This document shows positions 16,576 to 60,168 of a stretch of DNA of 64,000 nucleotides, one piece after another (the first letter of the stretch is position 1; each line of letters starts with the position of its first letter). The notes below the pieces were generated by a model. The model ran no database searches. It was not told the DNA's origin and was given only the letters and a program-made list of their open reading frames with translations. Both the position numbers and the translations under genes were made by a program. The stretch is taken from assembly GCA_964016885.1 (NCBI GenBank), contig OZ024743.1, forward strand, positions 157,790,001 through 157,854,000, given 5' to 3'. The DNA is from Eledone cirrhosa (lineage: Eukaryota).

Positions 16576-18410
16576 ATGGACGCCATTAATACGACGCATG
16601 CCACGTCCCCCAAGGAAGTGATAGAGAGAAGGTAGCAGCACAACGCTGTAAGCCTTCCCTCCTCACTCCCGCAAAAGACACCACGGAATCAAAAGAAAAA
16701 AATGTGGAAATGGTTGAAAACCCCAAATTTAACAATTACACAAGCAAGAAAAACAATGACAATAACAACACAACCAACAACAGCAATAATGACAACACCA
16801 ACAAAGGAAAAAAGCAAGCCAACACGAATAACAACAACAACAATCATAACAACACGAAAGAAAACGGATCCATAGCTGCAGTCTCCTTCGCACAGGCGGT
16901 CCGAGAAACGCAGACATACAAGACACTGAACATCTCGAATGCCAAGAAATTGCTGAAAGAAGCAAGGAATAATGTAACTTTCGGGGAAGGTGGGGAATTC
17001 ACAATTACCTCCCCCGAAGAATGTAGAAGGGACACAGTCCTCAGGACTGTAATCTTTAGGACTGTTTCGAATATGACTAGGAAACCGGCTCAATTGTCCC
17101 AAAGCGAAATTGAGCTGGTCCTAAGTAGTACCTGGAAGGATATCGTTTTCATACAGAAAGGGAAACTGTATGGAAGCATATCTGTTTTAATGCATGATGA
17201 ATTGGCGGCACGGAAATATTCTGTGTCGCCAATTGTATCCAAAGCATACACCCCACATATTTGGGGAAAAGAACTCAAAAGATAAGAATCTCGGGCACCA
17301 GGCCAAATGTTAGCATTTGGTGGGTGCTAACGGGATTCTTAGAAGATGAGGACACAATCCTTTCGATAGGCGAATCCACCGGGGGCGTATTCGGCGGCAA
17401 TAGCCTTGAAGTTCTGGTCCAAATGAGACCAGAACGGATAGCAAGAATACCGCAGCGTGTGTCCCTGCATGAAGTCGCCTTCATAAACATTTCTGTTGAG
17501 GGAAGGCGGCCTTCATGCTACCACTGTTCAAGAAGTGGTCACCTGAGAGCTTCCTGTCCCCTTTTAAATCCCCCCCCCCAAAAAAAAGACGCTTCTGCCC
17601 ACCCCTCACACAACATTACAACCACCACCACCACCACTACCACCACAACAACAACAACAACACGAAAAAATAACAACACAAGACCTCCCACCCAACCCCT
17701 CCCCACCTAAAACAAATACAAAAGCAACCACAACAAAACCCCAAAATATACCCCTCCCCAACAACACGGACGAGAACCCCTTATCAACGTCACCCAGTGA
17801 TGACGAGGGAGAACCCTTTCAACCTGTAAAAAGAAAGAAAAGAAGGCACCACATTAACAAAAATGCAACAAACACAACCACCAACACAAACAGAACAAAC
17901 ATCACAAACAAAATAACCCACCCCACCCGAAAACATAACACATACTACAAAACGTAAACACACACAAGAATAACAAACAAAAAGAAACACAACACAACAA
18001 AAAAAGTATACATACATCAACACAAACAACAAAACACTTGTGCAAACAATAGACAAAGACCCTTCGGTGGAAACCGAAGGGAAAATGTTCACCAACGCGG
18101 CGACTAAACCGCATTTTAAAATGATTAGGGTCGCAAGGGACACCTACGCAATGCTCAAACAGAACTTTCCCGAGGACGTGGGGAACCCCTGTACTAGACC
18201 TAGCACCATGTCCTCTTGAAATGTTTCCCCACCACCACGCCATACACCCCTCCCCCACCAAACACCCCCACCCCACCACACACTGATGTCCCCAACACAT
18301 CCCAAACCACCACCCCAACAAACAACCCCGCCGACACCCCCATGGAAATTGTGCAGCCTGGTCCCCAGGAGAAGGACAGGTATGTGTCTTTTTCTTTTTC
18401 TCCGCTCTAA
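16576..18410 (+). pseudogene. Tx1 ORF1 (gag-like, Asn-rich N-terminus, zinc knuckle), disrupted
   Basis: ORF pieces 16704-17285, 17261-17710 and 18216-18410; homologous to 52548-54457. Confidence 0.8.
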
Positions 18411-18426
18411 ACTCTTCACCACCAAC

Positions 18427-21400
18427 ATGGCTGATATAAGAGTTGGATGTTTAAATGTGCGCGGCCTGGAGATGTCTTGGAAGCAGGGCAAACACTTAAA
18501 TGACCTCAGGTCACACAGAATGGATGTGATAGCTGTTTGCGAGTCCGGGATCAGCAGCGAGCACCAACTGGCCCCCATCTTCGACGACTTTTAGATCTAT
18601 GCATCTCTCTGTCAGCCGGGGATGGGTAGGGGTGGTCGTTCTGCTGCGAAAGCACCTGGGCCTCACAACACGGAAGGTAAACCTGGACCCGGAGAGTCGA
18701 CTGGTGGTTCTAGACGTAGGCAGTAGTGAAGGTGGAGCCTTCAGGCTGGTGGCAGCGTATACCCCATCTGGGACACCGCGACCGGACTTCTTCCAACGCC
18801 TAGAGACGTTCTGGGAACGTCTCGCTCCTTGCTTTTATTGGGGGACTGGAATGGTATCCTGGATGCACGTTGGGACTATGTAGGGGCATTTCCCGATAGA
18901 GGGGGGTGTAACAGCCTCAAACGGTTAGTCGGCCGATTTGATCTGGCCGATAGATATCGACTAGATTTTCCGACTGTGCCACTGTGGACGTGGACTAATT
19001 GTAGCAGAACATTTAGGTCGTACCTAGATAAGTTCCTAATTAGAAATAAGGATAGGGACATATTAAGCTGTTCACGAATGTTCATGGTTGACTATTCGGA
19101 TCACAAGTTGGTGACCGGAGTGGTCAACCTTGATAGAAACCATAGACAAGGACCCGGTTACTGGAAGCTAAACTTGTCCTTACCGACAAACAAAGCCTAC
19201 AGTAAGCGGATTATCACTCTAGTTAAGCAGCGGTTGACAGGGTCAATTGTCAACAGCAGGTAGTGGGGCTCTCTCAAGAGAGAAATTAGAATAGAATCGA
19301 TAGGTTTTAGTCAGGAATTAGCATCAGATCGGAATAGAACTGAAAGAGAATTGATAGATAGAGTAGAAGAGGCGATTAGGAGGGGCAACGTGGCCGGCGT
19401 ACTGGCGTCAAGAACAGCCCTAGACCAGTTCTTTGACGCGAAGCACGAGGGCTGTGATTTCAGGAGTAAAATACGTGCTCTGGGTAACGAGGGAGCCAAA
19501 GGTGTTAGCTGGGCCCGAGTGACAGAGGCAAAAAGTGGAAACAAGTCCACGATTCGGTCTTGAAGGACCAGGATGGACGCGTGATCCTTGAACCTGAGCG
19601 GGTGTGCGCGGCCTTTCAACGGCGTTTGCACGACTGTTCGTGAGGGGCGGCGGGCCGGGTGAGGACATGGATTTTGGTCCATACCTCGACGGTCTGCCGC
19701 GGCTCTCGGACGGGGAGGCGAAGTCCTGCGAAAGACCGATTTCAGCCGCTGAAATAAGGGAAGCGCTGAGCCTATGCGGCAAACGCAAATCTCCAGGTCT
19801 CGATGGTCTACCATACGAACTTTATGTAGCGATGCCGGACTTGTTCTCCGATCTACTCGAGGCGGTCTACTGCAACTGGCAACAGAACGGGAGAATTCCC
19901 AGTTCTGTGACCAAAGGCGTAGTCACGCTGGTGAGGAAGGACGAGAACAAGGGGGATGACATAGATAACTTCAGGCCCATAACTCTGCTAAACACAGAGT
20001 TAAAGATTTTGGCCAAGGTGTTAGCGAAGAGGTTGGCGCTTGTCGTCAGGAACTTGGTGGCAGAAGCGCATACATGCGCAATCCCGTCCAGGTCCATATA
20101 CGATAACCTCCACCTCATGCGACACATCGTAGAGAGGGTAGGGAACGACCCCGGCTTTGGTGGGGCCCTGATCAAATTGGATCAATCTAAGGCGTTCGAT
20201 AGAGTCGACCATCGGTACCTGGATGCGGTGCTCGCGGCGGCAGGCTTCGGACCCGTTTTCAGGGGCTGGATTGCTGCAATGCACAGCAGCAATGCACACC
20301 TGCTCGATGGTTAAGGTGAACGGCTACCTCTCGGAGCCGTTCCAAATCGCGCGATCCATCCGACAGGGATTCCCTCTCTCCTCCCTTCTGTATGTGCTGG
20401 CTCTCGAGCCACTACTGCGGAAGTTGGAGCTGTTGCAGGGAATCCCCTTGGAACCGAGATTGCAGAAAGCGGTGTCGGCCTACGCCGATGACGTGACAGT
20501 AATAGTGTCGTGCGCCTCGGAAATCGGGCAGATCGGCACCTTACTGGAGGAATACGAAAGGCTTACAGGAGCCAAGCTGAACCGGGACAAGTCCGTCGGT
20601 TTGCAACTCGGAACGTGGAGAGGCAAACCGATGCCCTCCGACGGCGTGGTCGGACGCTGGACGGAGGGACCGGTGAAGCTGCTCGGGATCTGGTTCGGAC
20701 CGGATCTCCACGTGGAGAAAAACTGGGACGAAGTAACGGGCAGGGTGTTTACACTCGCCCAGAAGTGGGCCAAGTGCAAACTATCCCTGAAAGGTCGAGC
20801 TGAGGTGGCGAACACTTATATAGCGTCCGTCATCTACTACCGCTTGACCGTCGTGCCTTGCCCAGCGAAAACGCTCGCCAAAATTGAGCGCGCGCTCTTC
20901 CGATTCCTTTGGAAGAAGCGGGCCCCTTTGGTGAGAATATCCATCTGCTGTCAACACCCTTTGAACGGAGGGCTGGGGATGCCGTGGCTGACGATGCGTA
21001 GACACGCATTAAGGCTACGGCACCTCTAGGTATTCCTCACCGGTCAGCCGGTGTGGGCCCCTTTTGTGAGGCGAGCCTTTCCGAGACTCGTCTCACTCAC
21101 CGAGCTCCAATCTTGGGTCAAGCAAAGACCGAGAAAAGTGGGCGACTGGCACATTGAATGTGCCCAGGCGCTCACGGCCCTCTGGCAAGCGGATCCGGCA
21201 CTCAGTGGAGACTCAACCTCAACATTCTATAGAGGGTTGGTCCGCAGCAAGTGCGACGTCACTCTCGGAGAGGCTCTGGGCATGGAAGAAGACGAGCTAG
21301 CCAGTCTGTTTGGCCCGGAACCGATGTACAACTTCCAAAAGCCCCTGGCTTGGCAGTGCTACCGAGGAGCTCTACCCGTTCGGGACAAGCTCTACAGACA

Positions 21401-21839
21401 CGGGCGCTCGGGTGGGGACCCCTCGAAGATGATCTGTCCGAGATACGTGCGTGACGAGGAACGCATTCGTACACTGCCTGGGCGTTGCTGACCTGTGGGG
21501 ATATGTGGAACGACTACTGTCGCGGGTTGGACCAATCTGGTTGACCACCGAGTACATTGTCATGATCAAACCGCCTCCCCCCTTCAAAAACGAAGGAGAG
21601 TCGGTTTTCCTCTGTGTGATAGCTATGGCGAAAGAGATTGTATGGTGGACGAGGTTGAAAGGGCTGAGGTCAGACACTTTTCTCTCCGGCCAACAACTCG
21701 TCCTTTTTTCAAGTACCATTTTAGAAGAACGATCAGAATGGCGAGAGAGGTGCTCTACCCCAGCAAGTTTTATAAAAGGTGGGTGAAAGTGGCGAGAATG
21801 GCCCGAGTGAATGGGCCTTCTCTCTATATCAGCCTGTAG
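18427..21839 (+). pseudogene. Tx1 ORF2 (AP endonuclease-reverse transcriptase), multiple stops/frameshifts
   Basis: Consecutive ORF pieces with EN and RT motifs. Confidence 0.9.
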
Positions 21840-22077
21840 TTGAGAGAGGAGAGGAAGGGAGCACCCGCTCTTTGTGCTCCTGAGGAGGAGGGTTGCACAT
21901 TTTTTTCGGGTGTGTGTGCGACCCACGTCAATTGAGGACTTCGATTGTTGAATTTGATTTGTTATATGTTTTTACACGTTCCTTGAAATGTATGTAAACT
22001 CCTCGTCTTGTATGTGTCCCAATCTTTGATGCCCTGGTGGCAAATAAATAGAAAGTTATCTATCTATCTATCTTCAA

Positions 22078-23878: not shown

Positions 23879-26800
23879 TCAGCTCAAAGCTTCATTATAG
23901 ACAATATTCAGGGTTGTATCAATTGCAAATTTTATACCATCAGGATCGCACACTCGAGATGCAGCAACATACAGTTTCCCATGGCTGAATGCTGGATCAT
24001 TCAAGTAGACACAGACTCGCTTGAAAGTATGTCCCTGTGCCTTGTTGACAGTCATGGAGAAGGCCAAATTGACGGGAAACTGTCTCCTTTGCCAAATGAA
24101 TGGCAGCAGATCTTCACTTGGTCTCAGCGTGATGCTCGGAATGAGAACCCATTCCTCTTTGCCTGGGAGTTTAGCTTCTAAAAATCTTCCGTTAATCAAT
24201 CTCTCAACAATCAACCTGGTACCATTGCAAAGACCCATTTTATGATTGATATTTCTAAGCAATATAATCGGCATACCCTTTTTCAACCTCAAAATATGTG
24301 GGGGAAATCCGGGTATTTGAAGTGAATTCAGATACTCAGTCGGAACATCCATATTGTTCTGCTGATTAGGGTCTATTGCATCCGCACCGACGGTCAACCA
24401 TTCCTCTCCAGGAAACATTCCGGCTACTTGTGAATTTATTTCATCGACCGTTGCATTCGTATGAGTTAGAATAACGCGTTCCGATATCCAGGAGATATTC
24501 TGCCAAAAGCATTCAAATTAGGGAACACCAAGTCAATCAATGCTTGGCGGTCTAGTGGCATGACCAAATGGTCTGGGATTCTTACAGTCTGATTATCACC
24601 AACGTGTGGCAATTCATCGTTTCCCAACTGCATCAACCATCGGCCGTATGTCTCAGCCTGTTCGTTTTGCCCGAACATACGAAGTCGCATATTATCGTGT
24701 AATCGCAAAACTCTGAAATTGCGCCACAACGGGGACTTTTTCAGACATGCATCGACAGTTTGCGCTCGTTGAGCATTCCTAACAATTGGTAGCATCTGTC
24801 TGAAATCGCCACCAAGAACGATAGTTTTACCACCGAATGGCAGGCACTACCGCAGATATCTCTCAAAGTTCTGTCCAATGCCTCCAGCAAATATCTGTGT
24901 GCCATTGGAGCCTCGTCCCAAATAATCAGAGACGTATTGCGTATAAGACCCGCGAGTTCACTTTGTCCTGTAATGTTACAGACACTCAACTCATCCGGAG
25001 CCAATGGAGCCTTGAAGCATGAGTGGAAAGTCCTTCCACCACTCAGCAAAGTGGCAGCGATCCCACTGGTGGCCACAGGGAGAGCAATCTTCCTCTGAGC
25101 TCTGACTGCCGATAACATAGTGTTGAAACAGAATGACTTTCCGGTGCCTCCTGGAGCATCTATGAAAGCACAACGTTGCTCGTTAGTGGAAATCGAGTGG
25201 AGAACGCCATCGACCAATTTTCTCTGATATTTGGTCAACATTGGTATACGTTCATCCACAATACATTGCTGTTCCAGTGGATCAAACTGGAATAGTTCCT
25301 TCCGATCGAGTGGCAACTGTCTAAGCTGCAATCTCATGTTCAATGCCAAGACACGGTGCCGGATTTCTTCATCAGGAATTGGCAAATTGAAATCTGTTAA
25401 ACATTTCAAATGAACTTCAAGCAGTTGCTCAATATTGAGCAAAACAATAGCTTTCATCAAATTTTCATCATCGACCTGAAGATGATGCCTAAAATCATCA
25501 GCCATAATTCACCAATGGAGTTCAAAAAACTCTTTTGGATCGACAGGATTGCAGAATCCTAGAATCGTGACAAACAACTGCCTTATTTGAGCTGGCATTT
25601 ATGTTGTTCCTGCAGCTTCCATGGCGTTATTCCATTCAGCGTCATCCTGAAGGAGTCCCAGATGCTGACACACAGCCTGGTATGTTTCATATTACACGCC
25701 ATTGATTGTTTTCAAATCAGCGAAGCTCTGTTTACCTCCTGAAAAATCATTATGCAACAGAATTCGGAGATAAAACACATCACCAGATGCTGGATGGACA
25801 TTACAAACCCGTCCAATAGTGATGAATCTCAACTTTTGTTTTCTATCATTCCATTTCTTTCCCTTCTTATCCCACGTATAGTGCGAAGGGAAATCGCAGT
25901 AGAGTTGCCTTTGATCCGGGTTCAAAGCATATTCCCTATTATGCTTGAACCACTCAGTCAATTCCGTCTTAGGAGGTGGTGCGTTAGCAATTCTTTCGAC
26001 ACCTCTTCTAGTGTCTCCTGAAAACAGACCATTTGCCTATTCTCTAAGTGAACCGTCAGTTTCTGAACGCTGCGTTTGCGTTCATTGAGATCAAAATCGA
26101 ACAATCTCCAGCAAGCTTCGCTAGATCCAATCGAGCGAACATCCTGGAACCTGCCAACTTCATCTCCTTGGTTCACTTCCTCATTCCTGACATTGATCAT
26201 TGCCCGATCATGACCTTTGTAAACATATTTGAATAGATATTTGAAAGCTTTCACTGAGCTACAAATTTCCACATGAATATGACAACGATATTTCATAATC
26301 AAATATGAATTGTATGGCACAACCCATTGATTTGTAACCTGTCGACCGTTTACATTTTCGACCAAACCGCCATCTGCAGGCGACCGTCTTCTGTATGAGG
26401 GATGAGTATCCCCATCATTCCTGGAAGTGTTCGTGACAAAAGATTTCGGAAAGTGCTTACTGCATTGGCCATCTTTCATGCCAGGTGCTTTGCCACTCCG
26501 CATTGGTTGTGCACCATTGACTTTGCCACCAAGTTGCGTTGTGCCTCATTCTCCGGCAGTTCAGCACACACAATGCTGTCGACATCCTCAGCACATCTCA
26601 ATTTGCAATCTCTATATAAAATGATCAGCAAATGTACATGTGGCAATCCTCTTTTTTGAAATTCAATTACGTATGTAAAAGCAACTATACCTCCAAAGAT
26701 ACCTCTTTTTCCACATCATCCATTATCTTTTTCAGATATCCTTTGAATACTCTTGCCACAATATCAGGACGGTCCTTTGGCTGTTGTCCTGGCAAACGTG

Positions 26801-28344
26801 CATCCTTAATATCAGTCCATTCAGGATTGCATGCAACCGTTATAAACAAATCTGGCTTTCCAAACTTTCTCACAATAGCCATTGCATCCTGATAGCGAAT
26901 ATTCATATATCTCGGGCCGCCGATTAACGACGATGGCAAAATGATGCGTCGACCAATTTGCTTGTAATTGGCACCATCGGCTGTTATCGCATCCTGTATA
27001 TTACTATACAATTCAGCTCTGATATGTTGCTGATGTGTAGCTATATAATTTAGCCTTTGATTTTCGATTTTTGCGAATGCCATACAACAGTATTCCTGGA
27101 ACAATATGCTGGCTTAAAATAGCGCATTTCTCTGTTGATTCCTCTCCTTCAAATAGAACGCGTAAAAGTCGCGAATCGAATTGTTGTGACTATTGTCACC
27201 TCCCTGTTCATGCTGATTCTCATGATCATCTAAATGAACAGACATGTTCCAACCATTTTCACCTTTTGGAAATAAAAGAACATAATGCAATGGATCGTAT
27301 GCCCTATTTGACTCAGTGATAGTCTTGAGACCACCATCTATGCGATTGAGGACGATATCTCTCGATGCAGGCTTATCGTCCATCAACACAGCAACTTCAC
27401 GAAATCCTTCAGGGGCATTATATCGCGGTTCGTGTTGATTCCTTGGCACTGCGTCAATGTTTGCTGCTGAACATTTTGCAGTTCAGCCACCAACATGAAA
27501 TCCATAAAATAAGGATTACACTGTCTAAGCCATGATTGCAAATCACGGATCAAATCACTTAACCTTTGCTGTTCAAGTTCAGTTATATTTCCCGGCAACT
27601 TCATCCAACTGATCCTGATATCCTCCTCCGATTCACTATAATCTGGATCGTTAACGTAAATTTGAGCGAATCGAGGCCTCTCTCCTGGGGTAACTTCTAA
27701 ATTATCGATACAGTGATACAAACGCCCTTGAATGACTACATTCGGTTGCCATGCTCCACTCTCAAACATCTCACTAACTCTGCGATGCTAAGCTAATGAA
27801 TTGTTAATTTGCCGCGAATATTTGCGCAGTAATCTACCTCGGTCTCCTTGATCACCCCACATACTTAGTATTTTAAACTCCGGTGACTCCTTATCATCCG
27901 GCATTCGCAAGGGTTCTAGTTGAACTGCTCCATTATGACAGCACATTGTGGTCCACGTCTTTTCGTGCCTCCAAAGCAATGCTCCACAATGTGGACACTC
28001 TGCTCGTCCACCAATCTGAAAATGACACGGTTGCCATGATCCATTTTTAATGTCATTCGTTCGCCTTCTAGCCTCTTTACTGGAATGAGTAGCACTTTGA
28101 CGACACATTCTCTGAACTTCTGTATTGCGCTGGCGCTCTTCAGCCAGCTCCTCTTCATCCATCGCAGCACGCCGTTGCTGCGGAATTCTGGCCATCTGCT
28201 GATGATGCTCAGCCAGTTCGTCTTCACCATCGCAGCACGCCGTCGCTGCTTGGCTCCTGTGTTTCGTTGGTGTTGTTCAGACAGCTCCTCAAGTAAATAT
28301 TCCATTGGCGGCCATCTTGTTACCCATAGGCAGATCTCACACAA
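23879..28344 (-). mobile_element. Helitron Rep-Helicase gene, frameshifted
   Basis: Zn finger CPHC..MCCHNG; HUH Rep motifs PDLFITVACNPEW, YVIEFQKRGLPHVH (~26625-26675) and KYLFKYVYKG; Pif1 motifs DAPGGTGKS, IIWDEAPM, RRQFPV, TVNKAQG, FSHGKLYVAASRV. Confidence 0.95.
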
Positions 28345-30109: not shown

Positions 30110-33100
30110 ACGGTAACAATACGAATAACAACAACAACCACAGTGGTAATAATAGAAATAATATATGTAGCAACATTAATGATAGACACAACAAAAACAA
30201 GAAACATAATCAAAGAAACAACCACAATGGTAGAAATAACAGTAACAACAACAATAACGGTGGAGAAAACAACAACAATACATCTAACAATCACAGCAAC
30301 AATACATCTAGCAATCATAACAACAATACATTTAACAATAATAGCAACACACACAACTATGACGATAGATATAATGACAACCCCTTAGAGAAACTATTCT
30401 TCAACCCAGCTGACAAAACATATAAGATGGGTAATATCTATCCTACGAGGTTACCCTTTAATAAAAGAGTTTGCATACCACAACAAATAGATGACGAGAC
30501 AGAGGCACAGTTCACCATAGCTAGAAATAAGATTAGACAAATAGTAGACCGGTTTACTAAGAGACAGAGCAGACCAGAGGTCCAACAACTTGGGAAGAAA
30601 CCTGTAGAAGGCTTGGTTAGCCTCAAGCAGTGCACGAGGGATGGTGAGGTAGTATGTCTACCCACGTATAAGTCTGGTAGGATGTCAATAGACAGCATGC
30701 CGAACTACATCAAGGCTTCACCAACACGAGCGAAATTGCACAGCAAATACATGATAGGAGAGAGAAAATCCTCAACGCTCACATGATGATGTGGACCGAT
30801 ATCCTAAAGCCAAGCAGACGCACTGCCAAGAACTTCCAGGCGTCCAACAATGGCATACCACCCTTGTATGGGCTCCGCAAAGACCACAAGACAGTGACGA
30901 CCCGACAACAGTGCCAACAACAAGACCTGTATGCGGAGCAAATATAAATCTCCTACTTTCTCTCAATGGTTATACGCCCCATAATGAAGATGTCCCTAGA
31001 TGTATGTGACAGTACAGAGGACCTCCTCAGCAGAATCAGTGAGTGCAACAAAAACAGGAACCTATCCAACTGAATAATAGGCAGTATGGATGTGGTATCA
31101 CTGTACCCATCCATTAACAATGATTTTGCTGTGGAAAAATGTGTGGAGATGATCATTTAGAGTGAGGTGGAGTTCTGCGACGTCAACACAGACGAGCTGG
31201 GCCTCCTAATTAGACTTGCCTACGACACTGACTACCTAGACAGCCATGACCTTAGACGTTTCTGCCCCAGTAGACCCATAAGAGGTAGACCCCCCACCAT
31301 AACCTCAATGGCAAAAAAGACTCCCATGGGAAGGTGGATTGGGTGGACCAAAGCTATACTGACCTCCCAAAACAATGATCAGGTAAGAAAAATGGTCGCA
31401 CATGCAATAGGGGCTAGTATCAAAACTACCCTAAAGGGCCACATATTCAAGTTCAACGAGAAGATCTACACCCAAAATGAGGGGGCAGCCATTGGCGTCA
31501 GCATAGCTAGTGACGTTGCCAAACTTTTTATGGTATGGTGGGAAAGGAGACTCAATGGATCTCCTTGATGAGAGCTCCATAGACCTCATCATGTACTCTC
31601 GTTACGTAGACGACACCAATATAGTAATAAGGACATCCCCACAAGAGAGCACTAACAAGTTTGATTTAGAACGTAATACAATGGAAAGCATCCAGCAGAT
31701 AGCTAGTTCCATACTCCAGAGTATAACTGTAACTATCGTCTACCCTTCCAAACACCCTAACAATAGACTACCTGTATTAGACACGGAACTCTGGATTAAC
31801 ACTATAGACGAGAGAGCCCAAATTCTCCACTCACACTATGCTAAACCCATGGCCTCCAAATACCTGATACTCAAAAACTCAGCAATGTCCAGTGGTGCTA
31901 AGTTTAATATTCTGATCGCTGACTTGGTACGAGTGATGAAGAACTTGTCCCGCATGTGCGACGCAACAGAAATGGAAAGACACATCCAACACTTCATCAA
32001 CCGCATGCAGTTCTCTGGCTACAACCAAAGAGACAGAATCAGAGTATACGAAGGAGTCACGGAGATGTATAAGACCCTCATAGAACTGGACATGAAAGGA
32101 ATTTGCCCATTATACAGGAGCAAATCATGGAATAGCTTAGATAGAACTAGACATAAGATAGGGAAAGCCACATCATGGTACGACAACCAGAGATACCAGA
32201 GTGTCATGTTTGTGGACGCTACCCCTGGAGGGAAATTAGCTAACCAGTGTAGAAAGGCCCTGGGAAAGACCAACTTAAAGATTGAGGTGGTAGAAAAGCC
32301 AGGAACTACCATAAAATCCCTGATCAGCAAAACCTACCCTTTTAAGAAAACCCACTGTACTAATAGGAAATGTATCATATGTAGAGTAAAAACCCGGATA
32401 AACTGTAAAACTAGAAATGTAGTCTATAACATAAGATGTACAGAGGGTACTTGCAGAAACATGACAACAACATACATAGGCGAGACAGCTCGTAGCATAG
32501 GTGAAAGGATAGACCAACACTGGGGGGAACTAAAAGGACGAAAAAACGGTTCAGTACTATACGAACATGCCAGACAACAACACAACGGTAACATAGACAA
32601 CATAGAAGTTAGAATAATATCTAAACATAGAAATGACCCAGCAGATAGGCAAATCAGAGAGGCCTGCGAAATAGAACTTAGAAGGCCAAGGCTAAACAAA
32701 AAAAATGAATGGAATAACAACAACACCCAAACAAACAACACTGACCTAAGAGAAGTATAAATAAATAAATAAATAAATAAATACACAAGCACAATAACAA
32801 CAAACACATATAAATACACACAAGTAAACTAAGATAGAATACATTAACCAATACACAGTCACCCAAACAAGAACACACATGAAACAAAACACTATACACA
32901 CACGCAAACGCAAGCGCAGAGAAGACAAAAAAAGAAACAAATAAATAAACAGACTAAACAAAGATGGCGTAAGCATACAATGTAACGGGAGGTAACATAA
33001 TAGCACCACTGACGATTTTGCAGATGTGCAACGAAAGAGCTTTGATAGACTATATATATGTGTTTGTGTCTATATTGTATCTGTATTTTTGACCGTTGGT

Positions 33101-33287: not shown

Positions 33288-33960
33288 CAACTAGAAATAG
33301 ATTGACATATATATATATATAAAATAAACATATGGAACAATCACAGGGAATAATTTGTAAGTATGTAAGCATACATAGCTAGGTAGGTAACCAATTAAAG
33401 TTTAACTAGAACTTCAAATATAGATACCTTTTAAAATGATTAATCTCCTTTGTATATATTTCTTTAAATAAAAAATATAGCGCATGTCTCTCAGACATGA
33501 AAACCCTTAATTTATTTTTTTTTATATATATACGGCCCCTTAATTGTAGAGCTAACACAGTTGAATGGACTCGGCTACTATTTCTAGCTGTTGATAATCC
33601 TATTCACGCCACTGGGATGACGCTGTGTGATGTGTGCATTTTTTTTAAAATGCAACACGTGGTTTGAGTCATTCACAGATTTGCATTTCCTTTGTAAACG
33701 CAGATAGTTGGATCTTCTCCTTTGGTGACCATCCAAGATTTGACTACTGTGATTTACTGATTAATTGGTGAAATATATTTTTTATTTAAAGAAATATATA
33801 CAAAGGAGATTATTCATTTTAAAAGGTATTTGAAGTTCTAGTTAAACTTTAATTGGTTACCTACCTAGCTACGTGTGCTTACATACTTTACAAATTATTC
33901 CCTGTGTTGTTTCATATGTTTATTTTATATATATATGTCAATCTATTTCTAGTTGATATA
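33284..33960. repeat. ~195-bp inverted repeat (33284-33478 vs 33775-33960) around a copy of the 6270-6695 family
   Basis: Near-identical reverse complements; short direct repeat gcgcatgtctctcaga at 33480 and 34014. Confidence 0.8.
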
Positions 33961-34095
33961 AAATGCTCGGATCTATTCATTGGAATCTTTAAGCTTATTC
34001 TGCAGTGGATATGGCGCATGTCTCTCAGATATAAAAACCCTTAATTTAATTTTTTGGATATATGTATATACAGATATATATATGTGTGTATGTAG

Positions 34096-34187
<92 letters not shown>

Positions 34188-34235
34188 GACGTAAAATAAG
34201 AAAATTATAAAAATTAACTTACTTACTAAAATTTC

Positions 34236-34317
34236 ACTCCAACTAATTAGTTTCTGAAAGGGAATAAACATGGTTTCCGAATGGAACGCATGGAGAAACC
34301 TTTCGTCATCAGGAAGT
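34236..34317 (-). ncRNA. Type-I hammerhead ribozyme, tandem unit 1
   Basis: Minus: acttc-CTGATGA-cgaaagg..catg c gttcc attc ggaaac catg..cctttca-GAAA-ctaattag-TT-ggagt; stem III palindrome actaattagt; GUU site. Confidence 0.8.
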
Positions 34318-34764
34318 CTGTTCTTAGCTAAGTTCCCAGGCGATGCGTGGACACAGGGAACTTATACAAAAATAATTCAGTGGATGGAAAAAAGCAAGCG
34401 TGGACTAAATTCCAAGACATTGAAAAAGTCACTGCCTACTTGGTCGGTGGCAAATTCAAAAGAATCCATCACGTGACATCGAGGTTAATCAGTGAGGAGT
34501 GGGGTGTTAAAAAGACAGTAGCCGAACCATTACTATGAACTATAGTAGCAGTTTTGGCAAATTTTTGCTCAACAAAATAATTTGGAGATAATTATAAAGA
34601 ATTAGTATATCTACCAACATATATATACAGATGCATACCTATGCTAGCAAATATATAGGTTTTGTCTTAGTAACTTTGTCGTTCAATGCAAGGGGATGCA
34701 GAACAATTATATGAAAGACGTAAAATAAGAAAATTATAAAAATTAACTTACTTACTAAAATTTC

Positions 34765-34846
34765 ACTCCAACTAATTAGTTTCTGAAAGGGAATAAACAT
34801 GGTTTCCGAATGGAACGCATGGAGAAACCTTTCGTCATCAGGAAGT
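34765..34846 (-). ncRNA. Type-I hammerhead ribozyme, tandem unit 2
   Basis: Identical to 34236-34317, 529 bp away. Confidence 0.8.
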
Positions 34847-35451
34847 CTGTTCTCAGCTAAGTTCCCAGGCGATGCGTGGACACAGGGAACTTATACAAAA
34901 ATAATTCAGTGGATGGAAAAAAGCAAGCGTGGACTAAATTCCAAGACATTGAAAAAATCACTGCCTACTTGGTCGGTGGCAAATTCAAAAGAATCCATCA
35001 CGTGACATCGAGGTTAATCAGTGAGGAGTGGGGTGTTAAAAAGACAGTAGGCGAACCATTACTATGAACTATAGTAGCAGTTTTGGCAAATTTTTGCTCA
35101 ACAAAATAATTTGGAGATAATTATAAAGAATTAGTATATCTACCAACATATATATACAGATGCATACCTATGCTAGCAAATATATAGGTTTTGTCTTAGT
35201 AACTTTATGGTTCAATGCAAGGGGATGCAGAACAATTATATGAAAGACGTAAAATAAGAAAATTATAAAAATTAACTTAAATTAACTAAATTTTAGTAAG
35301 TAAGTTAATTTTTATAATTTTCTTATTTTACGTCTTTCATATAATTGTTCTACATCCCCTTGCATTGAACCACAAAGTTACTAAGACAAAACTTATATAT
35401 TTGCTAGCATAGGTATGCATATGTATATATAATTTGGTAGATATACTAATT

Positions 35452-35493
<42 letters not shown>

Positions 35494-36999: not shown

Positions 37000-38353
37000 T
37001 GTAGAAATTAATAGTACTCGTTCGGCATAAAGACGGCATAACGTTAGCACACCCGAAGCCAGGAATACATTCCTCGAGTGCTTGGAATAATTGATTTCCA
37101 TATCTTTCGCTAGGCGACCTCACTCGGAATGGCTGACATATGATTTGGGTGGGCTGGCGGGGGTATACAGTCGCCACATGCTGTCGGACTGCTAAACAAG
37201 GACATATCCTTTACTCTAAAACCCACTAGGATAATTTATAGAGAATTTCTATAATACAATTAAAGTTTCTTCATAAAAGACTCTCTCTTTAACTAAAAAT
37301 ACTCTCTCTTTAACTAACTCTCGCAACCCAAAACCCATAAAAAAGTTCTAAACTGTTTAATTTTCCATTTTCTTACTGTTTAATTCTCAATTCTCTAACT
37401 CTTTAATTTTATAATGTTAATCTTTAATTTTTTAACTTCATCCTATAAATCTAAACAATAATTTAACGTTCCAATTTTCTGTCGGACTGGTGGGTTGGTT
37501 TTCCTGGCTGCGGGACCGGCCTCCTGGCGCATAGGCCTACCTTGAGTGCTTGGAAAAGTAAATTTCCCCTTCTTTCGGTAAATGAAACTACTCGGAGCGA
37601 CTTGATTCGCCCCAGGGGCCCGGCGCGCAGCCGGTTTTTTGATCGCCATATAGTACCTTTAAATTGGAGACCTAATCATAACTATTAGATGTATCACGCC
37701 TCCTATACTTAAACAAATCCCCCTCCTAGGTAGATTAATAGTACTGGTTTGGTAAAAGGAGAGTCTAACGATGAGGGCTGACTTCCCACTGGCGCACCTG
37801 AAGCCTGTCATACATTCATAGAGTGCTTGGAAAAATTGATTTCCGTATCTTTCGCTAGGCGATATCACTCGGAAGAGCTGACACGCGGTAAGGTTGGGCT
37901 AACGGAGCCTGCAGTCGCCGCATGCTGTTTGACTGCTAAACAAAGACATTATCTTTACTCTGGTGGTGGATTGGGTGGTGGATTGGCAGTATCGGTAGAG
38001 GGTCGGGCGCCATGCTTTCCAGCATAGTTACGTCCCTTTACGATCTGAGTTCAAATCCCGCCGAGGTTGACTTTGCCTTTCATCCTTACGGGGTCGATAA
38101 AATAAAGTACCAGTAATGCACTGGGTAATTGCTGGCCTTGTGCCTAAAGTAGAAACAATTATCTTTACTCTATAATACAATTTAAGTTTCTTCATAAAAA
38201 ACTCTTTCTTTACTTAAACCTCGCAACCAAAACCTTATAAATGTTAAACTGTTTCATTTTCAATTTTCTAATTTCTTAAATTTTATAATGTTAATATTAA
38301 ATATTAAATATTGAATTTTTGTAACTTCATCCTATAGATCTAAACAAAATTTA
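37000..38353. repeat. Diverged tandem duplication (~730-bp unit) with repeated structured motif
   Basis: 37000-37218 resembles 37728-37961; 37250-37467 resembles 38172-38355; motif GAGTGCTTGGAA..TTTCC..TCTTTCG..ACTCGGA occurs three times. Confidence 0.75.
37962..38157 (+). mobile_element. SINE family A, full length
   Basis: TSD attatctttactct at 37948-37961 and 38158-38171. Confidence 0.9.
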
Positions 38354-40004
38354 ACATTATCAGGGTTAAGCTGTCTTCTAATTGTTCTTTAAGTTTAACA
38401 TATGCCCAAGAGGAAGGAGCAGCCATTGGTGTTAGCATTGCAGGCGACATAGCTAACTTATTCATGGTATGGTGGGACAGTAGACTTAAACTTAAACTTA
38501 AAGAACAATTAGAAGACAGCTTAACCCTGATAATGTACTCCCGCTACGTAGATGATATAAACATCGTAGTTAAGACACCCCCACTAGAGAACAGTCAGGA
38601 ACTAGAGAAAAACACAATGGAAAGCATCCAGCAAATAGCAAACTCCATCCACCAGAGCATTAGAGTTACTATAGACTACCCAAGTAGACACCCCAACCAT
38701 CGATTACCTGTACTAGACACAGAGCTCTGGTTAGATACCATTAACAACCAAAAACAAATCCTCCATTCCCATTATGCCAAACCGATGACTTCCAAACATC
38801 TGATCCACCGAAACTCGGCCATTTCGGACCATACCAAAATCAACATACTGATTGCGGATTTGGTACGGGTGATGAGAAATGTGTCCCGCATGTGCAACCC
38901 CGAAGAACTAGAGAGACACATACAACACTTCATCCACCGTATGCAGTTCTCTGGCTACAATCAGAGAGATAGAATCAGAGTGTATAGAGGAGCCAGAACC
39001 AAATGGGAAAAAATGGTAAATAATGACATAAATGGGATCTGCCCCTTGTATAGGAGCAAATTTTGGAATAGAATAGAAAGAACTAGGAACAAGGCCAATA
39101 GAATAAACTCATGGTATGATAGCAATAAATACAACCCCTAGAGGCGAACTAGCCTACAAATTTAGAAGGGCCCTAAATAAACATAAACTCAATATTAAGA
39201 TAGTAGAAAGACCAGGTACCTCCGTAAAAACACTTATTAGCAAGACATACCCGTTCCAAAGACCCTCATGTATAGATAAGAAATGTATAACCTGTAAAAT
39301 AAGCCCCCATATTAACTGTAAAACTAGAAATGTAGTGTATAGCATAAGATGTACTGAAGGACAATGTAGAAACAAAAATATAGTGTACATAGGTGAGACA
39401 GCTCGTAGTATAGGGGAACGGATAAATGAACACTGGCGAGACCTTCAAGATAATAAAGAATCATCTGTACTCTACCAACATGCTAAGATAGAACACAAGG
39501 GTAAATTAGAGAACATAGAAATAAAAATAGAATCTACACACAGAAAAAAAGCAATGTTTAGACAAATTACAGAGGCAATAAACATAAAAGAATTACAACC
39601 AAAATTAAATAGAAAATATGAGTGGAACAGCAACATCACAACTTACAATTAAGGACAAAAAGAAAACACACACACACATAGAACAAACAACCAACCAATA
39701 ACATGTAAATAAATAAACAAATAGATACATGAACACAAACACACACACAGAAACAAAATGGCGTAGGACAGAAGAAAGGAAAGGCACAGAAACAAAGAAA
39801 GGAATCCCCAGTCACTGAAGAAGTCACAGAGTGTGTGACGAAAGGACTATGACTATATATAAACAACTATCTGGTTGTGGAACCAACCAACCAACCAGAA
39901 ATTTATAAATTTGTAGATTTATAAATTTATAAATATATAATAAATTGAAGTGAAAGCAACTGGTGCGTGTGTTTCTTATTGGCAACATGACCCTCCCAAA
40001 GTAT

Positions 40005-42733: not shown

Positions 42734-43078
42734 TCAAGGCGGTTGATTTATCGTAGGAGTGTCGATCCAGTTACAGATCAGATGCGATTTCAGATGAGGA
42801 CAGCATCTGAAGATCTCAGTCTTTGAGTTAAGGCAAGCGGAAGTGGCTCTCAAGTTTAGCAAAATCCTATACTTTTCTGTGGTACACAAAGAACAATTCT
42901 TTGTGCCCCTTTGGTACTCCCTCGAATGGTCTAATATAGACCAATCAATAGAGTACGGGATATTACTATCCTTGAGATCCCATACCTTACTTGCGAGGGC
43001 CGTTGATGTTCGTTTATCTGAGTGTTTAAAAGAAGCGACATGTGAGTAAAATCTGGTTTTAAACCTGTCCTGGGTCAT

Positions 43079-43087
<9 letters not shown>
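42734..43087 (-). pseudogene. C-terminal GIY-YIG fragment of nested Penelope-like element
   Basis: YIGMTQDRFKTRFYSH..F..TALAS.VWDLK..CSLCTTEK..LNSKTEIFRCCPH. Confidence 0.85.
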
Positions 43088-43135
<48 letters not shown>

Positions 43136-44329
43136 TTAGTACAAACACAGACTAACACTTATTAAGTATTTAAATATATATGTATATGTTGTTTACAGTA
43201 TAATATAATAAAGATAAAAATAAGAATAAAGATAAAAATAAAAATAAAATATAATATATAATTCGCTGTCAGTGTGCATAAACAATATAGAAACATTATA
43301 ATAACACTATAATAACAATATTATAATATATTGGCATCAAAAGATATACAAAATTACATCATATATATAATTAATTCAAGGTTAACAAATAGTATAAAGT
43401 TTTACACAGGGTAAGAAAAAATCATATAGAACTAAATAGTGTTGAAAAATTGAGTTGAAAAAAATATCCATACCATTGTAACAAATACACTAAGGTCAAG
43501 TCATTTTACATTGGCATAAATATTACCAAAATATCACAAAATATTACTAAATATATTTACGTGGTTGACATACAGACATATATTAATGAAATTACATGGT
43601 CAGACAAACAGCGTGTGGTAGTAAAAAATAAATAAAATAAACCTAAGATCGAAAAAAACAAAATCAAGTATATTTACTTGTGTCACAAGCGGTTAAGTAA
43701 AAGAAGAGATAGAAATGTAAGCGGCGAATTGACTAGAAAACCTTTTTAAATTAATTAATATTAAAAGTATTTAAAATACATATTTAGTCACTTCAAAATT
43801 GGCTATATTTTAAGTCATCAGAAACGTATAAGTTTGAGATATTTCAATAAACTTATCAATAATAGAGTAAAATATGCTCAGTTCAGTCGAATGACGTTAT
43901 CAAAAAAAGACTCTAAATAGAACTATGGTAGACCAATGGGAACAGAAAGAAGAGAGGTTATGGAGGATAGGAAGGAGCATAAAAGTAAAATCAATATATT
44001 ATATAATATCATAAAAGGAGCATAAAGGTGAAATTTATATATAGTATAATAGAAGGGGCGGATATTAAGTGTGTAGAGGAGGAGGTACACTAGTTGAATG
44101 AGACTCCAACCCAAAGTATTTAGTAAGATATAAACCCATAAGGTTTTAGTAGTGAAACTATAATAATGCTTAAGACAATAGATAGGGTATGGTAGCCAAA
44201 AGACTATGGAAACTAAAATCGAAAAGTTGTAAAAAAACTAATAATAATAAAGATGATGGTAATCAAAATGAACCTAAAAAAAAAAGATAAGGAAAAAATA
44301 GCAGCCAATGGATACGATTTAAACTGCCA

Positions 44330-45480
44330 GAACTTTTAGGTCTATAATAGAAGAAAGAATTAGAAATGGCATGGGGGGCAGGAAGAAAATATCTCAGACT
44401 TTCTATTAAGCAAAACTTCCCTAGAGAAAATTATAGAGTGGGTCTCTAGGATACAGAGATTACAGAATTTAGTGTGTGTTGATAGGTTATTATACGCCAA
44501 TTAAGGCTATATGGCATGCCTGCCCCTTTAAGATCCCAGATATGGTGTGCTAAAGAAGTAGAGTTCTTAAACTTAACATGCTTAAAATTAGAGATATGAG
44601 AATTAAATCTAGTTTTAAAAGTATTAGATGTGGAGCCTATATATGTGCTATTAGAAGAATCAGTCTTAACTTCACAAGCATAAACAATGTTCCTAAAGAG
44701 GCAGTGACCATTTAAAGGGCAGTTAATACTTACTCTACAGTTACACTTCCTGGTGCTATTTACCGGCTGAATAAGTGATGCATCACTTCTAGGGTTATTA
44801 TAAGATAAGGTCTGCTCAGGTGGTAAGGCATTAATGGATCTATCAAGACAAGTAGTACGCAAAGAGGAGTAGCTGTCCCTAATTTTGTTATTGTTAGTGC
44901 TAGCTAAATAAGAACTAATATTAGGGGTGGTAGAGAAGGATAGTTTAATTACATTTTTATTAAAAATACCATGGTATTTATTAGTAGGAGGGAAATTTTT
45001 CTCTAAGATAGAAAAGAAAGACCTAGGGATGTTAGTTAACACCTCATGATCATAAGGCGGGTTAAAATAAGTATTGAGTCTCCTCCTATTTCTATCCTTA
45101 CGAACTCTACCGTTATCCAGTATCCCACTAATAGGATCAGGGTTACTACGAGGACTAGTTGAAACAACATTATTAGGAGCAGCCAAAACACTATTGAGTC
45201 TCCTTCTGTTTCTACCTTTAGTATATCTACTGTTATCTGGAATCATATCAATAGGATCAGGGTTACTACCAGGATCAGTTGAAACAACCCTATTAGAATT
45301 AGTAAAAACATTCCCACTGGGTGAGCGATCAGAGTGCCTAACTTGTTCCCTAGAACTAATCCCGAAAAGTGTACCATTAGACTCACTACTACGATTACGG
45401 TAGCTTAACCTATGGATGGGTTCGGATACACCTATGGGATTTCTACGATTCTTATGCTTTCTATTCCCATTCATGGCCAC
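44330..45480 (-). pseudogene. Penelope-like thumb/linker/GIY-YIG ORF fragment
   Basis: FNPPY..TNI..FP..IFNKN.IKLSFS, CNCR..CPLNGHCL..IVY..YIGSTSNTFKTRFNSH; 120-bp internal tandem at 45072/45192. Confidence 0.88.
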
Positions 45481-46048
45481 ATTATGGGAAATTACGTTAT
45501 TATTAAATATACTTGTTTTTGTTTTTTTCGATCTTAGGTTTATTTTATTTATTTTTTACTACCACACGCTGTTTGTCTGACCATGTAATTTCATTAATAT
45601 ATGTCTGTATGTCAACCACGTAAATATATTTTGTAATATTTTGTGATATTTTGGTAATATTTATGCCAATGTAAAATGACTTGACCTTAGTGTATTTGTT
45701 ACAATGGTATGGATATTTTTTCAACTCAATTTTTCAACACTATTTAGTTCTATATGATTTTTTCTTACCCTGTGTAAAACTTTATACTATTTGTTAACCT
45801 TGAATTAATTATATATATGATGTAATTTTGTATATCTTTTGATGCCAATATATTATAATATTGTTATTATAGTGTTATTATAATGTTTCTATATTGTTTA
45901 TGCACACTGACAGCGAATTATATATTATATTTTATTTTTATTTTTATCTTTATTCTTATTTTTATCTTTATTATATTATACTGTAAACAATATATACATA
46001 TATATTTAAATACTTAATAAGTGTTAGTCTGTGTTTGTACTAATGTAC

Positions 46049-46101
<53 letters not shown>

Positions 46102-46390
46102 TTAAGCTTTTTATTATCACCATCTATTATACTATATTATATTCTATATCGTACTGTAATTCTCGCATTGTATTGCCATTTGTGTTTCAAGATTTTGCAT
46201 TATATAATATTTACAATGTGGGTTCAACATGTTAATCACTTCCTTGCTATTTGGTCTATATCTATGTTTGTAACTGCTCGCTCTTAATCTTAGCCTACTT
46301 TTCCTTGATATCCTTCCTAGGCTTTAATAGATGTATACTCCATATTCTTCTGAGTTTTTGGCTTGTATTAGCCGATAGTGCTTCTTGTAG

Positions 46391-46444
46391 CTTTACTTGC
46401 CCTGATGAGTCCTTAATAGGACGAAACATTGTTGGCTAATAAAG
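46391..46444 (+). ncRNA. Type-I hammerhead ribozyme (intact)
   Basis: ctttacttgcc-CTGATGA-gtcct taat aggac-GAAA-c att g-TT-ggctaataaag. Confidence 0.88.
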
Positions 46445-46598
46445 ACTTTTGATGTATTGAAGGCTTCTTTGGTTTATTTTTTATAATATTTTTTTATAAT
46501 TCTTCAGCTCTGTTTAATTACATTGAGCTACATCTTATACTGTCATTTCTATAATATGAAGAGTGTGTTTAACTCCAACACACTCTAGTATTTCAATT

Positions 46599-46706
<108 letters not shown>

Positions 46707-60131: not shown

Positions 60132-60168
60132 ATCATAACTTTCGGACGCTAGTCCTTCATCAGAAGAT
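60132..60168 (-). ncRNA. Near-intact minimal hammerhead at end of C/A-rich tail (60055-60780, minus)
   Basis: Minus: atctt-CTGATGA-a-ggac tagc gtcc-GAAA-g-TT-atgat; stem III collapsed. Confidence 0.6.

Follow-up and report, generated by a model that had tools for sequence, protein, structure and literature searches.

The 529-bp tandem examined here lies in a 64,000-nucleotide stretch of Eledone cirrhosa DNA (the window). It is best explained as a twin-armed insertion of a non-coding hammerhead element into a (TA)n microsatellite, likely copied by the reverse transcriptase-endonuclease of a Hydra-clade Penelope-type element (PLE), probably from an RNA circle. Taken as a whole, this reading is held with moderate confidence, and its parts differ in strength. 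That the element is non-autonomous and mobilised by a PLE is very likely, and the assignment of the mobiliser to the Hydra clade is likely. That a circle served as the main template is slightly favoured. The element can be classed as non-LTR retrozyme-like from features seen at the sequence level, and hammerhead cleavage and a circle are predicted for it.

Anatomy of the insertion

The features of the insertion, in window coordinates, are as follows.

34058–34183, no strand: (TA)n target microsatellite, left side (TRF and sequence)
34179–34707, RNA sense on the minus strand: unit 1, 529 bp; short initiation site (unit position 1) at the left edge
34708–35236, minus strand: unit 2, 529 bp, with 5 differences from unit 1
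35237–35279, minus strand: third pass, a 43-bp exact match that ends early; the long arm finishes here
35288–35458, plus strand: inverted second arm, 171 bp, made of unit positions 415–529 (the 115-nt tail) and 1–56
35455–35490, no strand: (TA)n target microsatellite, right side (TRF and sequence)
34236–34317, minus strand: type I hammerhead of unit 1, predicted cut 34241/34240
34765–34846, minus strand: type I hammerhead of unit 2, predicted cut 34770/34769
Parts of the unit 2 hammerhead: extra base 34834, G10.1 34833, C11.1 34785, invariant extra A 34784, palindrome 34771–34780
34241–34769, minus strand: predicted 529-nt monomer between both cuts

As seen in this list, most of what a preliminary description had proposed for the locus is borne out. 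The two near-identical units and the start of a third stand at the positions given, an inverted copy is present, and the whole is embedded in (TA)n on either side. The motif of a minus-strand hammerhead in each unit, with the 10-nt palindrome ACUAAUUAGU and predicted cuts 529 nt apart, was likewise recovered. The claim that no credible ORF is present also stands, as no stop-to-stop frame within the element is longer than 87 aa. The unit is non-coding, low in GC and without LTR-type organisation, as judged from the unit layout, with PBS and PPT motifs outside that judgement.

The inverted arm is 95–100% identical to the unit (6 differences in 171 nt), and its start, next to the (TA)n on the right, is the long initiation site. 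The insertion therefore has one short-site end and one long-site end, in keeping with the pairing rule described below. At 4 of the 5 positions that distinguish the two units, the difference consists of a rare allele. Any target-site duplication is masked because the target itself is (TA)n. The predicted monomer fold reaches −130.5 kcal/mol (z −5.2), and none of 100 shuffles was as stable.

Several other repeats are found nearby. Just left of the insertion, 110-bp inverted repeats of 86% identity (33311–33420 and 33827–33936) flank 406 bp; the segment 33311–33936 belongs to another, very abundant repeat. Broken ORFs at 23879–28276 on the minus strand resemble what we take to be a Helitron Rep-helicase. 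Two broken elements on the plus strand, at 16590–22000 and 52470–57600, are presumably LINE-like, with endonuclease and reverse transcriptase fragments.

Family size and sampling

The 24-nt 3' core of the hammerhead has 2,239 exact matches in the 3.0-Gb genome, compared with 0 for its reversed control. Three exact unit motifs gave 2,239, 1,822 and 2,793 matches, and each reversed control gave 0. Judged by these counts, the hammerhead motif of the 529-bp family exceeds chance. The loci sampled were the best hits, the first motif matches listed on one contig (C1) and the results of a variant search. Nearly all matches listed for the hammerhead and position-415 motifs were included, together with the first 30 for the position-1 motif. 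The sample is thus biased toward copies that hold a motif. About half of the loci were chosen by a motif that spans the cut, which favours read-through, and the others by start-site motifs.

Within this sample, 120 full units of 475–550 bp were reduced to 21 representatives at less than 93% identity, with 80–100% identity to the window unit, and the full unit is kept in all of them. After approximate de-duplication, 179 distinct insertions were counted. (TA)n adjoins at least one side in 173 of these, and both sides in 96, and the copies range from monomer to multimer. It can be seen that the earlier proposal of a young, non-autonomous copy of a dispersed family agrees with the thousands of motif matches and with the (TA)n target. 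Its expectation of further (AT)n loci with variable copy number was also realised; freely permuted ends were not found, as the ends fall at two fixed sites. Four other contig sets compared with the locus also contain the family, but none of their pieces extends across the locus, and they do not bear on the tandem.

One array, L095 (G000:C1:94665200-94675199), holds about 16 units of 521 bp each and an inverted arm on (TA)n at its end. Most of its segments are 20–38 differences apart, with a few near-identical pairs (1–8 differences). This pattern is compatible with a long copy that was modified afterwards by duplication, and such an array could be a source of long linear or multimeric templates. 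As a separate observation, an identical 248-bp unit fragment with an identical SINE-like flank occurs at three places (L032, L033 and L040), where it was probably duplicated or carried as a passenger.

Initiation sites, read-through and the template

Most arms begin at one of two fixed initiation sites, which are 115 nt apart and both carry TATA. Unit position 1 or positions 410–417 begin 149 of the 186 arms, 141 of them directly on (TA)n, and the short site (position 1) is used by 74 of the 186. The two sites are paired. Among inverted insertions with both ends at the sites, one of each is found in 33 of 34, and in a larger, overlapping sample the short-plus-long pairing holds for 70 of 71 two-arm insertions. 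In that larger sample, 34 of 105 inverted junctions have at least one end elsewhere.

Counted from the predicted cut, the initiation sites are found 62 and 177 nt downstream, so a cut linear monomer could yield only arms of 62 or 177 nt. Only 21 of the 149 arms are this short. The median arm is 460 nt, 62 of the 149 arms exceed one unit and 7 exceed two. The cut site itself was passed by cDNA 173 times, compared with 21 stops within −25 to +9. Halting of arms at the cut site was considered and rejected, as no sharp peak is present (positions 55–66, p=0.09). Arm ends are mildly enriched over the hammerhead region as a whole, at 3.45 versus 1.77 per 1,000 nt for positions 45–132 (p=1.6e-4; for 37–71, p=0.03). 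Some templates may end at the cut, or structure may stall the enzyme.

Variants point to a common template within each insertion. Diagnostic differences per kb number 4.8 between successive units, 10.8 between the two arms and 57.1 between random loci. Alleles that are rare across loci are common to adjacent units in 49 cases and confined to one unit in 322. Where a rare allele is common to a tandem, it is also present in the opposite arm in 10 of 14 cases, and the arms diverge no more than the units do. The right arm of the window insertion had prompted the idea that the two arms derive from different RNA molecules; it found no support genome-wide (3.76% versus 3.72% in 34 paired comparisons, p=0.26). 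The median divergence within an arm is 3.3%, which is not below that of the best match elsewhere (3.1%), and rolling-circle copying is therefore not set apart by raw identity. Read-through and the sharing of template variants, taken together, indicate one template lineage longer than the unit, that is, a circle or an uncut multimer and not a cut monomer. The earlier suggestion of copying from circular or multimeric RNA by a Penelope-type reverse transcriptase thus gains support from the insertion anatomy and from read-through.

Structure and conservation of the hammerhead

The predicted hammerhead consists of a 5-bp stem I, CUGAUGA, a 6-bp stem II base with a long insert, GAAA, the palindrome and a GUU triplet. 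Rfam gave no hammerhead match at the locus at E<=10, and the only matches there were to low-complexity or hairpin microRNA models, all below thresholds. Conservation was followed in 181 full-length hammerheads, collected with a pattern in which CUGAYGA, a G at 10.1 and the palindrome of stem III were obligatory. Immediately before G12, all 181 have A, and one position earlier 180 have C. The nucleotide that follows A9 varies, with 162 C, 13 A and 6 U. The base of stem II had been described as carrying a damaging C-A pair; on this alignment it is more plausibly an intact G10.1-C11.1 pair flanked on either side by a single unpaired nucleotide. As this feature is family-wide and conserved, the idea that it abolishes function finds no support in the alignment. 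The extra base on the 5' side is the unpaired position known from PLE hammerheads, and the extra A on the 3' side is the unusual part. With its GUU triplet, the extra A before G12 and the long stem II, the ribozyme is atypical.

Compensatory changes occur in stem I and stem II across subfamilies. Across 16 haplotypes, pairing is kept in 95.5% of cells, and a change on both sides is seen in 12. Neither value was reached in 500 shuffles, a test that is inflated by related sequences, and slid controls stay at or below 58.5%. Two other covariation measures, pairs and types, were not significant in these shuffles (61/500 and 99/500). Diagnostic sites fall on 1 of 29 hammerhead positions, the unpaired 9.1 base, compared with 104 of 500 positions elsewhere (p=0.017). 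Moreover, at loci that were not selected by the hammerhead motif, variation in the core is 2–3.5%, compared with 6–20% elsewhere. These patterns of variation indicate that the hammerhead fold is under selection across subfamilies.

The earlier suggestion that two ribozymes pair through stem III stands as a folding prediction. In silico, the palindrome pairs in trans at −9.0 kcal/mol and is predicted not to fold on itself, and two copies are predicted to co-fold at −42.6 kcal/mol versus 2 × −16.1. The minimum-energy fold of the monomer lacks the active hammerhead, whose catalytic core is not modelled by folding programs.

The core with the extra A has 184 matches in the genome, some of which are the 529-bp family itself, versus 11 for the control, and it is present in other repeat families. 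Several other families (L227–L254) have C...A extra bases around a short stem II, and L252–L254 among them form a 438-bp tandem. A sister family (L171:628-1190, L041 and L194) combines a long stem II with a 10-nt palindrome and lacks the extra bases. Its hammerheads are spaced at 483 bp, and it resembles the 529-bp unit at its terminus. Two further hammerhead motifs of repeated families are found in the window, at 60163 and 4577, both on the minus strand, the latter with an unpaired U on each side of stem II.

Candidate partners in the Hydra clade

Of the many PLE families in the genome, three abundant coding ones were examined, with 1,415 (A), 2,128 (B) and 2,154 (C) candidates. The CxCX5C linker was read in all three, and DKT and YRDD in two. 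Families B and C show the combination used to define the Hydra clade in section 11 of PMC8557442, namely DKT, an RW-type N-terminal motif, CxCX5C, a C-terminal GIY-YIG, (TA)n and a hammerhead. For family A, the linker and the endonuclease were read, and no canonical hammerhead was seen at its 3' end.

Copies of all three families terminate against (TA)n at one of two sites, short or long, that are about 96–133 nt apart, and two-arm loci pair one short with one long site in 4 of 6, 11 of 12 and 9 of 9 cases for A, B and C, respectively. A hammerhead precedes the short site by about 52–65 nt in B and about 39 nt in C. Additionally, two chimeric loci combine a Hydra PLE arm, which ends at its short site, with a copy of the unit that ends at its own long site. 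These are L076 for family A and L099/L363 for family C, and the short-plus-long rule is kept in each. Such chimeras may be mixed-template insertions or later insertions with deletion.

Sequence homology was sought as well. The segment of the unit from the cut to the end aligns weakly with family B, with 7 of 500 shuffles scoring as high. No clear homology of the unit to the three PLE families examined was detected, and none to the family A loci. When terminal similarity was compared with 30 other hammerheads, the best was that of the apparently non-coding sister family (z 2.6–3.7). A search for a partner by stem III or by the extra-A core returned only relatives of the family and other apparently non-coding families. 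The joint two-site motif, which could not match family B, returned only the 529-bp family among the 100 of 1,511 matches listed. On geometry and target, a Hydra-clade partner is well supported, with no one family of the clade singled out.

Nearly intact Hydra ORFs are present at L355 and L369; L355 is a family B copy with an open 861-aa RT-EN stretch, and ORFs of about 800–860 aa occur in families B and C. Among the named relatives of one PLE protein of this genome are an argonaut and a bivalve, and the SINE of the window resembles an octopus one; both would fit an octopod. The window holds a further family B copy at 43083–46604, an inverted insertion in (TA)n, with these parts.

44446–45555, minus strand: family B endonuclease part
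46386–46456, plus strand: family B hammerhead (Rfam HH9, E 0.0054)

The endonuclease end of another PLE family (42734–43135, minus strand) lies in the same (TA)n tract as this copy and has a 99% match in L207. Two more PLE copies, about 72% alike, lie at 31507–33060 and 38344–39860; one has a Pfam GIY-YIG hit, and hammerhead-like motifs are found within them at 33009 and 39815.

Proposed mechanism and alternative explanations

The proposed cycle would begin with minus-strand transcription of a tandem copy such as that of the window. The hammerheads are predicted to cut 529 nt apart, aided by pairing of the stem III palindromes or by a bound protein, and a host ligase would circularise the monomer. 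To judge from the insertion anatomy, a Hydra PLE protein would then nick both (TA)n strands, with cDNA beginning at two internal sites of the RNA, one for each end of the insertion. This has a counterpart in a purified PLE protein, for which initiation at two positions inside the RNA, marking the limits of the tail, and extension of both DNA strands are described (PMC11167929). In the copies themselves, the cDNA crosses the cut site and is variable in length, often longer than one unit, and template variants are common to all units and both arms of an insertion. Joining of the two cDNA ends would give the inverted structure, and insertions that hold two full hammerheads could restart the cycle.

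A more specific version is offered tentatively, as possible but doubtful. It would make the element a viroid-sized RNA circle that parasitises Hydra Penelope proteins. A protein dimer would engage the two fixed sites and lay two rolling-circle cDNAs into opposite (TA)n strands, the chimeras would be complexes loaded with both PLE mRNA and a circle, and cutting would be by an undescribed hammerhead variant with the invariant extra A, which several other repeat families of the genome share. If true, this would reveal which enzyme mobilises an animal retrozyme and which signals prime it, and would establish a circle as a template for transposition.

The nature of the template is where the alternatives mainly differ. 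With the identical element and PLE partner, the template could be an uncleaved linear read-through transcript, with hammerhead cutting rare or late and no circle formed. Internal initiation requires no free 3' end, the ribozyme core is atypical, long homogeneous arrays such as the 16-unit L095 exist, and read-through and template homogeneity are equally predicted. Published activities weigh against the preferred reading. PLE hammerheads are reported to have weak cleavage activity in vitro (PMC4209133), no cleavage is reported for 8 of the 9 dimers of Xenopus retrozymes (bioRxiv 10.64898/2026.07.22.740005), and for the anole PLE unprocessed RNA is given as the main substrate, with hammerhead mutants still inserted (PMC11167929). 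However, so few arms are longer than two units (7 of 149) that a family copied from linear RNA only would grow shorter unless it were replenished from a few master arrays, yet the full unit is retained in every one of the 21 representatives. The apparent selection on the hammerhead fold across subfamilies also argues against this template, as do the circles documented for comparable repeats of coral, mussel and axolotl (PMC7229834), and we regard it as unlikely. A cleaved linear monomer, with tandems made when the reverse transcriptase jumps from its 5' end onto the 3' end of that monomer or of a different one, is far less probable. It would account for the mild excess of arm ends around the cut, and the chimeric loci suggest that template changes may occur. 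Against it stand the 173 passes, compared with 21 stops, and the lack of a sharp peak of arm ends at the cut site. Subfamily alleles, moreover, are nearly always common to successive units, whereas jumps between molecules would mix them.

Two further explanations concern the identity of the unit. That it is only the pseudo-LTR of a coding PLE, the sampled copies being truncated, had been named in the preliminary description as a possible objection. The geometry does match the ends of Hydra PLEs, and an origin of retrozymes from pLTRs has already been published (bioRxiv 10.64898/2026.07.22.740005). Yet what follows the unit in the 179 insertions is a further unit, an arm in inverted orientation, (TA)n or unique DNA, and no RT-endonuclease ORF is common to the unit termini among them. 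The free far ends number 76, of which 30 are on (TA)n, and among the other 46 no two flanks are alike; one of these 46 adjoins a same-sense PLE ORF, broken inside the endonuclease (L076). Within the sample, this explanation is largely refuted, and it is given very little credence. A satellite formed by unequal crossing-over, or an assembly artefact, is hardly credible at all. Later local duplication is indicated by the near-identical unit pairs of L095, but breakpoints are unique, and start sites fixed, at hundreds of dispersed loci, and the 5 differences between the units of the window include 4 rare alleles. The concern over an artefact that accompanied the initial proposal is accordingly a slight one. 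A circle copied by a Hydra-clade protein stays the preferred reading, at the strength given at the outset.

Comparison with known systems

Both an origin of retrozymes from PLEs and their mobilisation by PLEs have already been proposed (bioRxiv 10.64898/2026.07.22.740005, PMC6765202, PMC7761336), and animal retrozymes are reported to make circles (PMC7229834). The argument as set out in the 2026 preprint rests on co-occurrence and on pLTR similarity (bioRxiv 10.64898/2026.07.22.740005), and animal retrozyme repeats are said in a review to show no motif that indicates their mobilising retrotransposon (PMC7761336). The 529-bp family displays the mechanical signature of its partner directly, in the form of two start sites, one per end, on (TA)n. 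It also supplies a naturally selected hammerhead variant that Rfam does not detect, and the nearly intact Hydra ORFs make reconstitution with a circular versus a linear template feasible at once. In a literature search, with most subscription papers and Repbase outside its scope, no description was found of the 529-bp family or of retrozymes with paired two-site ends, and the words octopus, cephalopod, microsatellite and inverted are absent from the main text of PMC7229834. Hammerheads and families are listed in the supplements of PMC8557442, PMC7229834, PMC4209133 and the preprint, and this variant may be among them. The family does not define a new kind of system; its insertion anatomy is unusually clear, and its value lies in the signature that the mobilising enzyme left in the genome and in the selected hammerhead variant.

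The metazoan non-LTR retrozymes, as described in PMC7229834 and bioRxiv 10.64898/2026.07.22.740005, are similar in many respects. They too consist of tandem, non-coding units poor in GC, each with a single type I hammerhead, in thousands of copies from monomers to multimers, with PLEs co-occurring. Even a mismatch at the base of stem II has a parallel in axolotl HHR_Amex2, which is reported to cleave slowly alone and better as a dimer (PMC7229834). At 529 nt, the unit is longer than the 170–400 nt of the tested retrozymes and within the 51–972 bp range of the 2026 survey. Dispersed (TA)n insertions, inverted arms and two fixed start sites set it apart from non-LTR retrozymes as described in these sources, as do the long stem II insert and the invariant extra A.

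Hydra-clade PLEs, as characterised by Craig et al. 2021 (PMC8557442), share the (TA)n target, 5' truncation, partial tandems and an inverted arm, a tail at one end only and a hammerhead just upstream of the ends. Unlike them, the unit has no ORF. Its tail of 115 nt compares with 30–40 nt given for PLEs in general (PMC8557442) and with about 96–133 nt in the Hydra families of this genome. The Poseidon element PAc of Anolis (Frangieh et al. 2024, PMC11167929) is similar in its two internal, tail-delimiting initiation sites past the hammerhead, its AT-rich target and the extension of both strands. According to the same source, PAc differs in being autonomous, in starting without RNA-DNA homology and in showing no strand difference in start site in vitro, whereas TATA at both sites of the unit matches the target and the sites are paired one per end. 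Finally, the minimal hammerheads of PLEs (Cervera and de la Pena 2014, PMC4209133) are described with the same unpaired base between 9 and 10.1, a conserved G10.1-C11.1, a short stem I and a palindromic stem III region. The hammerhead of the unit departs from them in the extra, invariant A between C11.1 and G12, in a stem II region of about 50 nt and in a 3-bp stem III with a tetraloop.
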